From a virus, in UHGV virus genome UHGV-0117634: a DNA stretch of 64,000 nt. One strand, 5' to 3'. Every line of letters starts with the position of its first letter. The stretch's first letter is position 1. Of this stretch, positions 40,140 through 60,244 are shown piece after piece. The notes under the pieces were generated by a model. It was not told the DNA's origin. It ran no database searches and saw only the letters and a list, made by a program, of their open reading frames with translations. The translations under genes and the position numbers were made by a program.

Positions 40140-41756
40140 TTAGCGTCTTAGCCCCTGATATGGATTACTCTTCATAATATCTGTATGAGCACCCATTGAA
40201 GGTGGCTTGAATAGTTTAACTTCGTTTAGACTGTTGAAAGCATCACTGGTAGCATCCACTTGGTCATCCTTAGTACGACCATCGCCACAAAAACCTTCTA
40301 GTTCTTGGAAATATGCTTCATTCCAAGAGCCTCTAACAATTTTGACAAGTCCTGCCTCAGAAGCAGCAGAGAAACCCGCAAAACGGGTGACTTTATCTTT
40401 ATTTGTTGGTTTAGCTCTTGCTCGGAAACCTTTCTCAGCAAGTTTTCTAATAAGGGAGGTTGCGTAGGATTTACCAGCAGCGCCGGGGTCTTGAGGGATA
40501 AAAATACCTGTGCGCTTACCATCACCTTCAGCAGTTTGGTTAATTTGTGTTTCAACTCCAGAAGGTCTATCTCTAAATCTTACTACGTTAATCACATAAT
40601 AGCAACCATCTTTTTTAGATTTACCCATTTTAACACCTGCTGTCCAGTCAGGGTTAGGGTTAACCTCAGAAGGTAATGTTGCTGCTAAGTCCCATGCTCT
40701 TACGTCAAATACGTCTGCTGGAACACTATCAACAATTTCACACCATTGTCTTTGCCAGTAGTTTGAACCTTCAGCACGAGCTTTCCAGTTACCAAAACGT
40801 AAACGTGCAACGTTAACTGGTGTGTTGTTTTCTAATTTACCACGATACTTAGGTTCAAGGAAATCTAGAATAGGGTTGTCATCAATTGTACCGGAAATAA
40901 AGGTATATGTTTGAGGAATCTCAAGAGGGAACATTTCAAGAATTTTATCCCTATCCCAATCAGAAACCATGACACCATCATTCATAACATACCAACGAAT
41001 CCTACCGCACTTCTCTGGGTCTGGATATCCAGCATCATCTAGGAAAGGTTCTACCCAATCATAAATAAAGTGGTCTCTATCTGGGTTCATTGAGATTTTC
41101 ATATATGAGTCACCTTCAGCACCAGAACGTAAACGTGTCTGAAGATATGAAATCTGTGAAGCCGAGAAGTGTGTACCTTCGTCGAAATAAATAGCTGAGT
41201 ATTCGATACCTTGGTGACCTTCTGAGTGTTTCTCAAGTTCCAAATAAGTAAACTTGATAGTTGCTCCAGAAGGGAAAGTGATAGTCATTTTCTGTTCATG
41301 TGGAACTCCACCAAACTTACCAAATAACTTCTTAGCCGCAGGCCACAGACCACCTTGTAACTGTGTTGTATTTCGACGGAAATAAACAGCGTTATAGTTT
41401 GGGTCTTCAATAAACCTTAGTGAGTCCATTAAAAGGGCAGCAGTCTTACCAGCACCAGCAGCACCACCATATAGTACCAAGTCAGCATTAGTGTTCAAGA
41501 ATACCTCTTGAGAGCCAGGCTGTGGAGCTACATAGTTCTTGTCAGTCATCAATTTAAAGATGAGTCTTACTTGGTCTGGGGTGTATCTTAATAAAGTCAG
41601 AATTTGAGTTGGAAGGAATTTAGAGGGGTCTTTACCAAAGGATTTGATAATATCTTTTACTTCTTCAGAAAGCCCCAACTCACCTGCTAGGACTTTCCTT
41701 ACATCTTCCACTCGCTTCTGCTTAATAACATTTAAGTCCATTAAGCACCTCTGCAA
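40140..41756 (-). CDS. terminase large subunit
   Basis: Walker A LYGGAAGAGKT; 538 aa; first gene of structural operon. Confidence 0.9.
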   Translation of the reverse strand: MQRCLMDLNVIKQKRVEDVRKVLAGELGLSEEVKDIIKSFGKDPSKFLPTQILTLLRYTPDQVRLIFKLMTDKNYVAPQPGSQEVFLNTNADLVLYGGAAGAGKTAALLMDSLRFIEDPNYNAVYFRRNTTQLQGGLWPAAKKLFGKFGGVPHEQKMTITFPSGATIKFTYLELEKHSEGHQGIEYSAIYFDEGTHFSASQISYLQTRLRSGAEGDSYMKISMNPDRDHFIYDWVEPFLDDAGYPDPEKCGRIRWYVMNDGVMVSDWDRDKILEMFPLEIPQTYTFISGTIDDNPILDFLEPKYRGKLENNTPVNVARLRFGNWKARAEGSNYWQRQWCEIVDSVPADVFDVRAWDLAATLPSEVNPNPDWTAGVKMGKSKKDGCYYVINVVRFRDRPSGVETQINQTAEGDGKRTGIFIPQDPGAAGKSYATSLIRKLAEKGFRARAKPTNKDKVTRFAGFSAASEAGLVKIVRGSWNEAYFQELEGFCGDGRTKDDQVDATSDAFNSLNEVKLFKPPSMGAHTDIMKSNPYQGLRR

Positions 41757-41762
41757 ATAGAA

Positions 41763-41969
41763 TTATTCAGAAACTTCTTCAGATTCCTGTTTAGGTTCTA
41801 CACCAAACTTTTCATCTACCAAATTAAGAAGTTTATCCATCGTTGCTTCTTGTGGGTTAATACCAGTTGCAACAATTAAACGTTCAGCCACAGCCATTAC
41901 AGTTGCCTGAAGCATCTGAGCCTGTTTCTGAGTTTCATATAGTTCTTTGTAAACATTAGTCTCGTTCAT
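41763..41969 (-). CDS. hypothetical small protein upstream of terminase
   Basis: 68 aa; too small for a confident small-terminase call. Confidence 0.4.
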   Translation of the reverse strand: MNETNVYKELYETQKQAQMLQATVMAVAERLIVATGINPQEATMDKLLNLVDEKFGVEPKQESEEVSE

Positions 41970-57284: not shown

Positions 57285-57952
57285 TTATGGGACACCTACT
57301 GAAGAAGAGTTGGAAGAACTTAATAGATATGGTTCCCCATCTGAAGAGGAAGAGAAAGAACTCCGAAGAATGGGAAGCAATTACTAAGAAATGTTTTAAG
57401 GATTTGATAGAGATGAAAAAGTTTGAACTTGAAAGAAAGTATCTGGTACTGAGTCTAGATGATATCAATACATATTTTGACGAAAGTGAGAAGTGGTCTT
57501 TAGACTTACTTGTTAATCGACTTAAGATGGAACGAGAAGATTCAGGTAAAGAGCCACTTGAAGGTGTCTTTGTCAAGAAGTCTTATCCGTTCTTTGAAGA
57601 TACTTTGAAGAAACTTGAGATGTATGTTAAGCAGCAGAACCGTAAAGAGTTCTCTATGATTTCTCTTGGTGGACAACAAATGCTGGTTATGGAAGATATA
57701 AACCCTAAGAGAACCAACAAAGGTGTTTGTATCAAGGTCACAGGTAAAGAAGAATTTATCAATATTGGACATTTGAAACATGTCAGTGAAGGTGGCTCCA
57801 TTTCACTCAATGGTAACCATTATTACATACGAACATACCCAATTAAGGGTTCACAGATTATGATTACAGTCATGGATGATGGTACTGGATTCACACACTT
57901 CTTCCAAACTACAAAGCAAGCTATACAAGCAATCATTGAAGAATTGTGTTGA
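57281..57952 (+). CDS. hypothetical protein
   Basis: ORF track, 223 aa; last plus-strand gene before the repeat region. Confidence 0.45.
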   Translation: MIMGHLLKKSWKNLIDMVPHLKRKRKNSEEWEAITKKCFKDLIEMKKFELERKYLVLSLDDINTYFDESEKWSLDLLVNRLKMEREDSGKEPLEGVFVKKSYPFFEDTLKKLEMYVKQQNRKEFSMISLGGQQMLVMEDINPKRTNKGVCIKVTGKEEFINIGHLKHVSEGGSISLNGNHYYIRTYPIKGSQIMITVMDDGTGFTHFFQTTKQAIQAIIEELC

Positions 57953-57961
57953 TTAATATTT

Positions 57962-58011
57962 AGCCCCTTAAAATGGATTCGCTAGAATCTATCTCATAGG
58001 GGCTTTTTATT
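57962..58011 (+). terminator. Candidate terminator after the plus-strand block (AGCCCCT ... AGGGGCT + TTTTTATT)
   Basis: 7-bp stem with a long loop followed by a T-run; weaker than a classical terminator. Confidence 0.35.
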
Positions 58012-58019
58012 GAGTAAAA

Positions 58020-59600
58020 TTTACGAAATTTATATTTTTATAAAATTTGGGATTCACTCCGTTCATCTTGGGTCACCATGATATGTGATAAAATATCTAT
58101 ACCCTTCTAAACACCCTCTCTAAGCATCATCTCTATATAGTATTATATAGTATCTATATAGCCTCTTAGTCCCTAAATAGTGCTCTCTATATAACCCTCT
58201 ATAAAGCCTTCTAAGCCTACCATTAATCAACCCTATACAATCACCTTCCTAGCCTCTTCCTAGCCCCTATAGCCATCTTAATCTCTAGGTTATCTGTGTT
58301 ACTTAACAGTAACCCATTAGGTAAACGATAGTACCCTATATAGCAGAATCACTAGGTATTACTAAGCCTCTATATAGACTGTTATATAACACTAAACAGG
58401 TATTCCCTGTAAAGGCTTATCCTACAAGGTCTAACACGGTACTAACAAGGTATCTTATAAGCCTGTTAATTCCTGTTTTATATAAGATAGTGTATAGATA
58501 GCTATTCAGTTCTATAAAATTTTTATAAAATAGACTAGGTAGGCCACTTTTTAGGTTCTTGGGAGTATCTGAAAAATATCTACAAAGGCTGTATATCTGC
58601 TTGGTAGCCCTTAACAGCCCTGTAACATCCCCTTTGCAAAATCTTAAAATATCATTAACAATCCCTTAACAACTCTCTCAAGCTCTTAACATCTCTTCAG
58701 AGTTCTTAACAGTTTCTTAACAGGACTAGCAAGGGCTTAACAAGTCTGTAATATTGCTTACAAGAGTCTAACAAGTTGCTTATAAGTTGCTAAATAGTTA
58801 AATCTTAAGAGTTATTTTGTTAAGATAATTAACAAGATGCTAACAAGTTCTAAATCTTTTTAACAAGCTATTAACATGGTCACTATCTCTTGGTCTATAG
58901 TTCCCTATCCCTCTTAGTGACTCTTTATAAAGCCCTCTATAAAGCTCTGTATAGCTCTGTATAGCCTCTTCTAAGCTTCTCCCTAGTAACTACACCCCAA
59001 ATACCTGTATAGCTCTTTATAGGGCTTTCTAGGGGCTTATACAGGGACTTCAAAGTGTCTAACAAGCTTTTAACATACCTCTAACAAGGATTTAACAAGG
59101 GGCTAACAAGTCTCTAATAAGCATAACTATGTTGCATTTGTTAAGATTTTGTTAAGAGAATGTAAAGGGGGCTAACTTTTACGTAACTTTATAGCCTCTT
59201 TTACGTAACTTTGAAGTAACTTCATAGCCCCTATAACATGTTTTTTAGTGACTATCAAGCCCTTTTTAGATATTCACAAGATACTAACGAGATGATAAAG
59301 CTTACACCCTTATAAGATTCTTTTAAGGCTCTAGGAAGCTCTATAGAGGGCTTTTAAGAGTGGGTTAATATGATTGGTTAAGTTGAGTTGATAAGCCGTT
59401 ATAGAGCGTTATAGAGCGTTTAAGGGATTGCCCTTCCCTTTCGGGTTATGGGCTTATATTTAAGGGATTGGTAACAATACCAATTAGTTGATTTGATAAG
59501 AGGTTATAGAGTAATCTATAGAGTTATTGCTCTAAATGTCTGGTAAGAGTCTAGAAAGGGATTGTATGAGGATTCGATAGAGTCCTATCTTATAGACGTT
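58020..59600. repeat. 1.6 kb non-coding region of short degenerate direct repeats with a strand-skew switch
   Basis: No ORF of 60 aa or more; repeat families CTATA(A/T)AG, CTTAACA, TAACAAG, CTTCTAAG; tandem CTCTGTATAG x2 and CGTTATAGAG x2; plus strand is G-depleted up to about 59300, then G-rich with inverted motifs. Confidence 0.6.
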
Positions 59601-59622
59601 AAAAAGCCCCATTGAAGGGGCT
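59600..59622 (-). terminator. Rho-independent terminator ending the minus-strand early gene array
   Basis: On minus strand GCCCC-TTCAAT-GGGGC followed by TTTTT; a second GC hairpin at 59647-59661. Confidence 0.6.
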
Positions 59623-59663
59623 TGTATAGGGTCTGGGGCTATTTGCCCCGTTGCGGCGACTTG

Positions 59664-59915
59664 TTAGTCATTATAACCAAATTTTTGATGGTAAAGCGTG
59701 ATAAGGGAACCATCCCAATAGTAAGACACTACACCATTTTTCAAGACTTCCTGTTTGACTTCTTTCCAGAAGTTTTCAGTTGGTTTATAGTCCTGAATAG
59801 TTGCCTTCAGACACATATCAACCATACCGAAAGCATCACCAGTGCCAACCATATCAAATTTAACATCTAATACGTTAAAACCAAAAGTGTTTACAGTTGC
59901 GCGGATAGTTGCCAT
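59664..59915 (-). CDS. hypothetical small protein (early array)
   Basis: ORF track, 83 aa; conserved upstream cassette. Confidence 0.45.
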   Translation of the reverse strand: MATIRATVNTFGFNVLDVKFDMVGTGDAFGMVDMCLKATIQDYKPTENFWKEVKQEVLKNGVVSYYWDGSLITLYHQKFGYND

Positions 59916-59985
59916 TTTTTGAATCTCCAGTTTAGGATTTTGGGTTAGTGGGGAAGTCTCCCTCCCCGTTGAAAGTAATATTAAT
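59916..59985 (-). promoter_or_regulatory. Conserved upstream cassette 1 (SD plus variable GC hairpin)
   Basis: minus-strand ...CCTAAACTGGAGATTC(A/T)AAA-ATG core; hairpin GGGGAAGTCTCCCTCCCC. Confidence 0.4.
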
Positions 59986-60244
59986 TCATTGCGGCGTATG
60001 TTGCAAGTCTTTTTTCTTTGTATTTTGTAAGAATCTCACAAGATAAAACGTCATACTTTACAATTGCTTCAGATTTAGTTAGACCAAAATGGCTTATAAT
60101 TTCACCATTCATGAATCCAACTACCTCATAAGATTCTGCGATGATTTCCCCGTTAAACCAGTCACTTTCTATACGTTTGCAAAGTTGGATATCTTCTTTG
60201 TCAGTACCAATCTGTAACAGGATAGTGATTTCTGCGTTATTCAT
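59981..60244 (-). CDS. hypothetical small protein (early array)
   Basis: ORF track, 87 aa. Confidence 0.45.
   Translation of the reverse strand: MNNAEITILLQIGTDKEDIQLCKRIESDWFNGEIIAESYEVVGFMNGEIISHFGLTKSEAIVKYDVLSCEILTKYKEKRLATYAAMN

Follow-up and report, generated by a model that had tools for sequence, protein, structure and literature searches.

The 64,000-nucleotide stretch analyzed here (the window), one strand of the virus genome UHGV-0117634, contains a gene-free, repeat-dense island that very probably holds, at 58603-59172 (570 bp), a sequence homologous to the short direct terminal repeat (DTR) of Felix O1-like phages. The island extends from 57953 to 59660 (about 1.7 kb), between a plus-strand gene block that ends at 57952 and a minus-strand block whose last stop lies at 59664. 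An initial annotation of the same DNA had proposed that it might be a replication origin with iterons, a partition or packaging site, a cluster of promoters for a phage RNA polymerase, or a G-less noncoding RNA; because the genome termini of relatives map to the island, the packaging site is the one of these candidates that finds support. Since the window carries a single copy of the DTR, we read it as a collapsed junction comprising a left flank (57953-58602), the DTR, and a right flank (59173-59660). Taken as a whole, the island is likely to be the terminal region in this collapsed concatemer-junction form, and its repeat arrays may serve as a scaffold for packaging.

The initial annotation had suggested checking whether genome termini fall in the region, and they do: the determined ends of relatives coincide with positions 58603 and 59172. 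In the record of E9, an Escherichia phage, the two ends are an exact repeat of 580 bp (100% identical), and the record of Pr103Blw, likewise an Escherichia phage, labels 1-581 and 87841-88421 as "short direct terminal repeat"; when both repeats were aligned to the window with MAFFT, their outermost bases fell on 58603 and 59172. Several related records start or end within the island, always at one of two positions. At least five records beyond E9 and Pr103Blw show this: CRP22, I14.1, ECP2307, and NBEco005 each match from record position 1 over the full query length in two copies, while the record of H12 starts at the position of the right boundary and carries the DTR homologue at two places. 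The Pr103Blw repeat was determined with PhageTerm (PMC8303462), the program that also lies behind the termini of Ro111lw and E9. Short DTRs have been reported for UAB_Phi87 (608 bp, by Bal31 digestion and run-off sequencing), Ro111lw (613 bp), Pr103Blw (581 bp), and E9 (580 bp) (PMC4837284, PMC6454146, PMC8303462), and Erwinia Kolesnikviruses have likewise been described as short-DTR phages. Across the Felixounavirus, Mooglevirus, and Suspvirus genomes that we measured, DTR lengths range from 569 to 658 bp.

Other records were set aside as sources of end positions. The apparent DTR of KMM2 is a 64 bp assembly overlap, opened 12 to 75 bp inside the left boundary, and not a true repeat. The Michonne record is opened at rIIA by convention and carries no information on termini, and the "repeat_region" features of skuden and warpig mark small tandem repeats only. 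Fifi318, reportedly reoriented with PhageTerm, has a record that starts at the terminase operon and gives no end coordinates, although its syntenic island is still useful.

Conservation of the boundaries was assessed in an alignment of 13 genomes from Mooglevirus, Suspvirus, and Felixounavirus. The left cut (58602/58603) lies in the invariant block TGTATATCTGCTT/GGTAGCCC and the right cut (59172/59173) in the invariant block TGTTAAG..AATGTWAAGGGGGC/TARCWTTTACGTWACTTT, a slash marking the cut; both blocks are present in 13 of 13 genomes and thus in all three genera. Each boundary word occurs once in the window, and the left-boundary word, the only one scanned there, is also single copy in each of 28 IMG/VR contigs. 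Identity between the island and Felixounavirus is 65 to 88%, falling to 44 to 59% in the terminator and AT-rich segment 57953-58089 and standing at 43 to 63% in the flanking genes; for the DTR, identity between the window and Felixounavirus is 72 to 80%. The Felixounavirus DTRs thus provide an orthologous sequence with identical boundary sequences, syntenic between the same convergent gene blocks. The window phage, by contrast, belongs to Mooglevirus, in none of whose records in the collection the repeat stands at both ends. The elements of the island, from left to right, are as follows.

57962-58009, plus strand: intrinsic terminator (hairpin 57962-58004, dG -21.4, z -4.6), closing the plus-strand gene block.
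58040-58340, no strand: outer left flank, a G-depleted array of 10 to 12 bp units (CTnTATAnAG, CTTCCTAGCC, TCTAAGCC).
58341-58602, no strand: inner left flank, conserved blocks (conservation 0.77 to 0.99 in the 13 genomes), ending with the invariant TGTATATCTGCTT at the left cut.
58603-59172, no strand: probable DTR homologue, 570 bp, from the alignment to the end repeats of E9 and Pr103Blw.
58611-58877, plus strand: YTAACAD array, 12 sites in one orientation, spaced 44, 11, 20, 20, 11, 20, 31, 61, 11, 20, and 11 bp.
58923-59035, no strand: central CTnTATAnAG cluster, with inverted repeat arms at 58926-58946 and 59011-59031 (local fold z -4.6).
59059-59109, plus strand: five exact 11 bp tandem TAACAAG units, their number varying among relatives in 11 bp steps.
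59138-59172, minus strand: inverted TGTTAAG pair, two units 11 bp apart, followed by AATGTAAAGGGGGC, which ends at the right cut.
59173-59235, no strand: palindrome cluster just outside the right boundary, with TTACGTAA twice, 22 bp apart, and GAAGTAACTTC.
59301-59595, no strand: right flank, G-rich on the plus strand, with inverted TATAGAG units and two 40-nucleotide units 105 bp apart (59381, 59486); conservation up to 0.98.
59601-59621, minus strand: intrinsic terminator (hairpin 59606-59621, then UUUUU; dG -13.1, z -4.2), closing a block of small genes.

The island matches 256 phage records by megablast, led by Shigella phage KPS64 (91% over 100% of the island), with Citrobacter phages Moogle, Michonne, and Mordin and Shigella phages Sf13-Sf19 among the other leading matches, all of them Mooglevirus. 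Judged by these matches, the source phage is a Mooglevirus, a Felix O1-like myovirus of the subfamily Ounavirinae. A search with 58603-59172 matched 280 records, and in 248 the match spanned 80% of the query or more. The terminal-repeat region of Felix O1-like phages is already known in existence and size and is not annotated for Mooglevirus; most depositors left the island unannotated. As a separate observation, the window is mosaic with respect to these relatives. The left flank and DTR (57953-59172) are 95 to 99% identical to KPS64, apart from one 140 bp DTR segment at 91%, and in the next 128 bp (59173-59300) identity is 99% with Moogle and 73% with KPS64; a mosaic break at this boundary of the DTR is consistent with recombination inside the repeat.

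The description of the island as a repeat-dense region of short degenerate units was borne out by 22 direct-repeat families and 18 tandem-repeat rows, the tandem periods being 10 to 13 bp almost throughout. Base autocorrelation, scored against dinucleotide shuffles, reaches its maxima at lags of 10 and 11 (z of 8.5 and 9.5, respectively), which match the helical period of DNA; it has harmonics at 20 to 22 and 31 to 32 and detects no 3 bp period in the island. Five coding stretches of the same length, used as controls, have no comparable 10/11 peak, the highest z being 2.5 at lag 10 in one control. The motif TAACAAG occurs 10 times in the island, against 5.5 copies per strand across the remaining 62 kb. 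Within the DTR there are 17 plus-strand YTAACAD sites at spacings of 11, 20, and 31 bp, and every genome has 16 to 19 plus-strand copies per DTR in a nearly constant spacing series. Between the window and seven Felixounavirus genomes, YTAACAD positions are 91% identical, compared with 73% elsewhere in the DTR (P = 9e-9), which indicates a footprint of selection on the sites themselves. Units of the CTnTATAnAG type are direct in the DTR center and left flank and inverted in the right flank.

The island alignment contains 80 distinct gap runs, of which 15 are multiples of 11 bp and 29 are single bases, while multiples of 3 make up only 19%. Repeat-unit copy number shifts in steps of 11 or 33 bp in Si3, warpig, VpaE1, and skuden; there are four inverted TGTTAAG units in Si3 and one fewer in warpig. 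The palindromic unit that had been noted is present as exact copies of CTTTTACGTAACTTT at 59176 and 59198, and the first copy of TTACGTAA is kept in 13 of 13 genomes, Si3 having additional 33 bp units. Beyond the three aligned genera, an Erwinia Kolesnikvirus has a syntenic 1.4 kb island free of open reading frames (ORFs) with an 11 bp periodicity (z 8.7) and 12 copies of TCTTAAC, 10 of them with the full CTTAACA core. Both boundary homologues are recognizable there, about 440 to 450 bp apart, and the flank motif is TTAGAAG where the window has TATAGAG.

Arrays of this kind also invite comparison with an origin of replication, in which the YTAACAD sites would be iterons and the AT-rich segment at about 58511-58534 the unwinding element, an arrangement that could coexist with packaging. 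The many same-orientation sites in helical spacing, conserved in number and spacing, are compatible with this, as is the short AT-rich direct repeat formed by two TATAAAAT units 11 bp apart (58514 and 58525) in the inner left flank. The ends of T7 bear promoters, annotated as phiOL and phiOR, and secondary origins. However, the island has one DnaA box at one mismatch, and the window has 77 against 91 expected; no initiator-like gene was recognized beside the island, the genes there having matches only in families of unknown function; the 24 bp stretch 58511-58534 is the sole AT-rich element; and the cumulative GC skew tracks gene orientation and is uninformative on an origin. Since the YTAACAD sites lie exactly within the limits of the DTR, packaging is the simpler explanation, and we regard it as unlikely that the island is or contains an origin. 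The proposal of an origin with iterons therefore gains nothing beyond an iteron-like look, DnaA boxes not being enriched. A scan with the IHF consensus likewise detected no enrichment, with one site in the island.

Under the packaging reading, replication would produce head-to-tail concatemers with one DTR between adjacent genomes, and the terminase would be directed to the DTR junction. Cuts would be made at 58602/58603 and 59172/59173, with the DTR duplicated in the course of packaging, as has been proposed for T7-type short-DTR phages. The 17 YTAACAD sites, the TGTTAAG pair, the TTACGTAA palindromes, and the mirror-oriented flank arrays would lie on one face of the helix and would most likely bind, or bend around, a protein with sequence specificity by which the junction is marked, either an unrecognized small terminase or another protein of phage or host. 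The convergent terminators would keep RNA polymerase, and hence transcription, out of the junction. That the repeat arrays act in packaging is, in our judgment, slightly less likely than not. More tentatively still, the terminal repeat of Ounavirinae may be a nucleoprotein platform in which 16 to 19 YTAACAD sites on one face, together with the inverted pair and palindromes at the right cut, are read by some protein, be it a cryptic small terminase or one that acts in end binding or replication, with which the flank motifs would covary between genera (TATAGAG here, TTAGAAG in Erwinia phages). If true, the platform would amount to a defined code by which a myovirus recognizes its T7-type DTR for packaging, none being known so far.

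The large terminase subunit is encoded at 40140-41756 on the minus strand (Terminase_6N/6C, phrog_979), and for UAB_Phi87 the terminase phylogeny is in accord with the type of packaging (PMC4837284). Directly upstream, a 68-amino-acid ORF at 41763-41969 (minus strand) matches only phrog_4397, a family of unknown function; it is put forward as a candidate small terminase because none has been recognized in this phage group. Elsewhere, lambda cosB, SPP1 pacL and pacR, and P1 pac are recognition arrays for small terminases, in phages with cohesive ends or headful packaging and not exact DTRs. By analogy, multiple helically phased short sites near a cut would fit a wrapped nucleoprotein complex, with the difference that no small terminase has been recognized in the window.

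T7 is built to the same plan at its concatemer junction. Measured with the same scripts, it has a 160 bp exact repeat whose flank (161-400) contains 11% G, has a skew of -0.44, and carries MMTAARG at 13 bp spacing, with further copies of the motif inside the repeat and on the other flank. Both phages therefore have a short exact DTR flanked by noncoding arrays of short oriented motifs, one flank being strongly G-poor, and the flank motifs resemble each other (CCTAAAG in T7; CTATAAAG and TCTAAG in the window). That T7 shares this plan implies that short-DTR phages have in common a junction dense in repeats and skewed in strand composition. The two have no sequence homology, however, and differ in period (13 bp in T7, 10 to 11 bp in the window), in the position of the densest array (17 sites inside the DTR in the window), and in length, the DTR of the window being 3.5 times longer. 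They differ also in transcription: T7 promoters read inward from the left end and promoters for the phage RNA polymerase lie on both sides, whereas the transcription units neighboring the island both end at it. As a minor point, ATCTGCTT at 58595-58602, directly outside the left DTR boundary, resembles the ATCTGTT directly outside the T7 repeat, the pause site of T7 RNA polymerase at the concatemer junction; the likeness is probably due to chance.

Several observations weigh against the reading of the island as a terminal region that is organized for packaging. To our knowledge, the role of the analogous T7 arrays has not been established. The ends of this particular phage are placed through homology only, and no Mooglevirus record in the collection has the repeat at both ends. 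No small terminase was recognized among the ORFs beside the large subunit or beside the island, which matched only families of unknown function, and both the binding of a protein to the arrays and a need for them in packaging are predictions. For UAB_Phi87, prediction and experiment agree closely but not exactly: its record has 614 bp between the two boundary motifs, 6 bp off the experimental length, and its terminal SpeI fragments are predicted to measure 4431 and 2751 bp, about 70 to 110 bp off the published sizes of 4322 and 2819 bp. With respect to the same phage, the collapsed SpeI fragment in JN225449.1 (13014-19582; locus L051) is 6568 bp, and set against the reported fragments (4322 + 2819 bp) it implies a repeat of about 573 bp, which does not agree exactly with the published 608 bp.

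The initial annotation described the plus strand as strongly G-depleted from about 58090 to 59300. This is true of about 300 bp (58040-58340), where G is 7 to 9%, the most G-depleted stretch of the window; the remainder does not share it, the GC skew being only moderate (-0.16 to -0.27) on to 59300. The window minimum falls at 58081-58280 (skew -0.61, G 7%; window mean -0.03, standard deviation 0.15). The further claim, a switch to G-rich sequence with inverted TATAGAG motifs, was accurate, the skew being +0.31 from 59301 and locally reaching +0.45. The likeness to T7 speaks for oriented DNA motifs, and not an RNA function, as the source of the skew. A role in transcription would make the C-rich, G-poor RNA a loading zone for Rho that backs up the terminators and insulates the junction. 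Downstream of the plus-strand terminator, the plus strand is indeed 30% C and 8% G and nearly unstructured (-7 to -12 kcal/mol in 120-nucleotide windows), and the right flank is C-rich on the minus strand, that is, for transcripts coming from the right. Yet the plus strand is C-rich across the entire DTR to 59300, so that the pattern is asymmetric about the junction; the 10 to 11 bp period and the 11 bp indel steps point to a constraint on DNA and not on RNA; and the equally G-poor flank of T7 lies upstream of its main rightward promoters, so that the skew there comes from oriented DNA repeats. We judge it quite unlikely that the skew serves transcription in this manner.

Both terminators were folded directly, and 120-nucleotide sliding-window fold z scores were used elsewhere. 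As anticipated, the island is bracketed by convergent terminators that fold well and are each followed by a U run. The plus-strand terminator has an outer stem (AGCCCCU/AGGGGCU) around an inner hairpin (GGAUUC..GAAUC), followed by the U run UUUUUAUU, and both terminators carry terminator annotation in phages Michonne and Moogle. Our terminator scan missed these two real terminators because of its rules for loop and tail.

It is very unlikely that the island consists of noncoding RNAs or a promoter cluster. The invariant block CTTTGCAAAATCTTAAAATATC, within 58611-58877 and 20 to 50 bp inside the left end of the DTR, holds a possible promoter-like TTAACA-N17-TAAAAT (58622-58650) that points into the repeat and is kept in the Erwinia phage with TAACAT replacing TAAAAT. 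A conserved two-tier hairpin at 59430-59453 (GCCC-TT-CCC-TTTC-GGG-TTAT-GGGC), followed by the T-rich tail TTATATTTA, is replaced in E9 and five IMG/VR loci by a second allele (GCCA..CCCC..GGGG..TGGC) that retains both stems. Against these stand the absence of any Rfam 15 match at E values up to 1 on either strand of 57500-60100, and folding that over most of the island is no better than in shuffles; the energy of the 59430-59453 hairpin itself is ordinary (z -1.0 and -2.2 on the two strands). The scan for sigma-70-like sites gave 7 where shuffles predict 9.0, and all flanking genes point into the island, so that no gene needs a promoter there. The noncoding RNA that had been suggested is thus met by no Rfam match and no unusual folding beyond the terminators and a few inverted repeats, and the suggested promoter cluster receives little or no support, sigma-70-like sites not being enriched (a T7-type polymerase and its promoters were not searched for). 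A literature search for RNA-seq of Felix O1 returned nothing relevant.

An injection-control site at which entering DNA pauses, like the injection stop signal of T5, is a highly improbable alternative. The T5 signal is a large, untranslated part of the terminal repeat that is rich in repeats and palindromes, conserved among relatives, and furnished with about 8 DnaA boxes in an ordered set (10.1101/866236); the island resembles it in all but the last of these features. The T5 repeat is about 10 kb and contains genes, and its hallmark set of DnaA boxes is not present in the island. In addition, there are no genes between the ends and the island that would be available for first expression. We know of no two-step DNA transfer in Felix O1-like phages, which counts against an injection role.

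That the island is a decayed gene or a functionless spacer is scarcely credible. Some depositors annotate short hypothetical ORFs here. The absence of any ORF of at least 60 amino acids in 57953-59660 was confirmed, however, the longest being 36, 36, and 42 amino acids; no ORF is common to all 13 aligned genomes or shared across the genera, and in Felix O1, VpaE1, and skuden not one reaches 40 amino acids. The lack of a 3 bp period in the autocorrelation points the same way. A degraded pseudogene, which the initial annotation had named as a finding that would overturn its view of the region, can be excluded, since all 280 matching records contain the island, which is conserved at least as well as, and in fact better than, the neighboring genes. 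One ORF deserves separate mention: a minus-strand frame of 42 to 62 amino acids inside the DTR (58937-59065) is kept in 6 of 6 Mooglevirus and Suspvirus genomes and in none of the 7 Felixounavirus genomes, and is most likely a chance ORF among close relatives.

In the literature searched, only the size of the DTR is reported, and we found no description of its internal arrays and boundary motifs. Most of the approximately 280 related records are opened at arbitrary points, and the island is left blank or given small ORFs that are spurious. With TGTATATCTGCTT/GG and AATGTWAAGGGGGC/TA as invariant boundary words, the physical ends can be placed from sequence alone. Felix O1-like phages are used in diagnostics and biocontrol of Salmonella and Escherichia coli, and rebooting, in vitro packaging, and the design of insertions require true ends and intact cis-acting sites. 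How exact short terminal repeats are recognized, cut, and duplicated is poorly understood, even for T7, and this family offers a good comparative system, as its sequenced members run to hundreds, its phased sites are conserved, and copy number varies naturally.

Small hairpin elements were also observed in and around the terminal region. The 22 bp element GATTCGSTAGAATCTAYCTCAT lies at 57976-57997, inside the loop of the plus-strand terminator, and is single copy in the window; Moogle (L018) and VpaE1 (L014) have an additional copy 13 bp left of the left DTR boundary. The palindrome ATTGGTAACAATACCAAT at 59468-59485 is an insertion in the right flank that most relatives do not have at that place, with a near-identical copy in the IMG/VR locus L031 and a reverse copy within the DTR of VpaE1 (L014). 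Together, GATTCGSTAGAATCTAYCTCAT and ATTGGTAACAATACCAAT suggest mini-palindromes that move within the terminal region. The Erwinia island, for its part, carries a hairpin similar in shape to that at 59430-59453.

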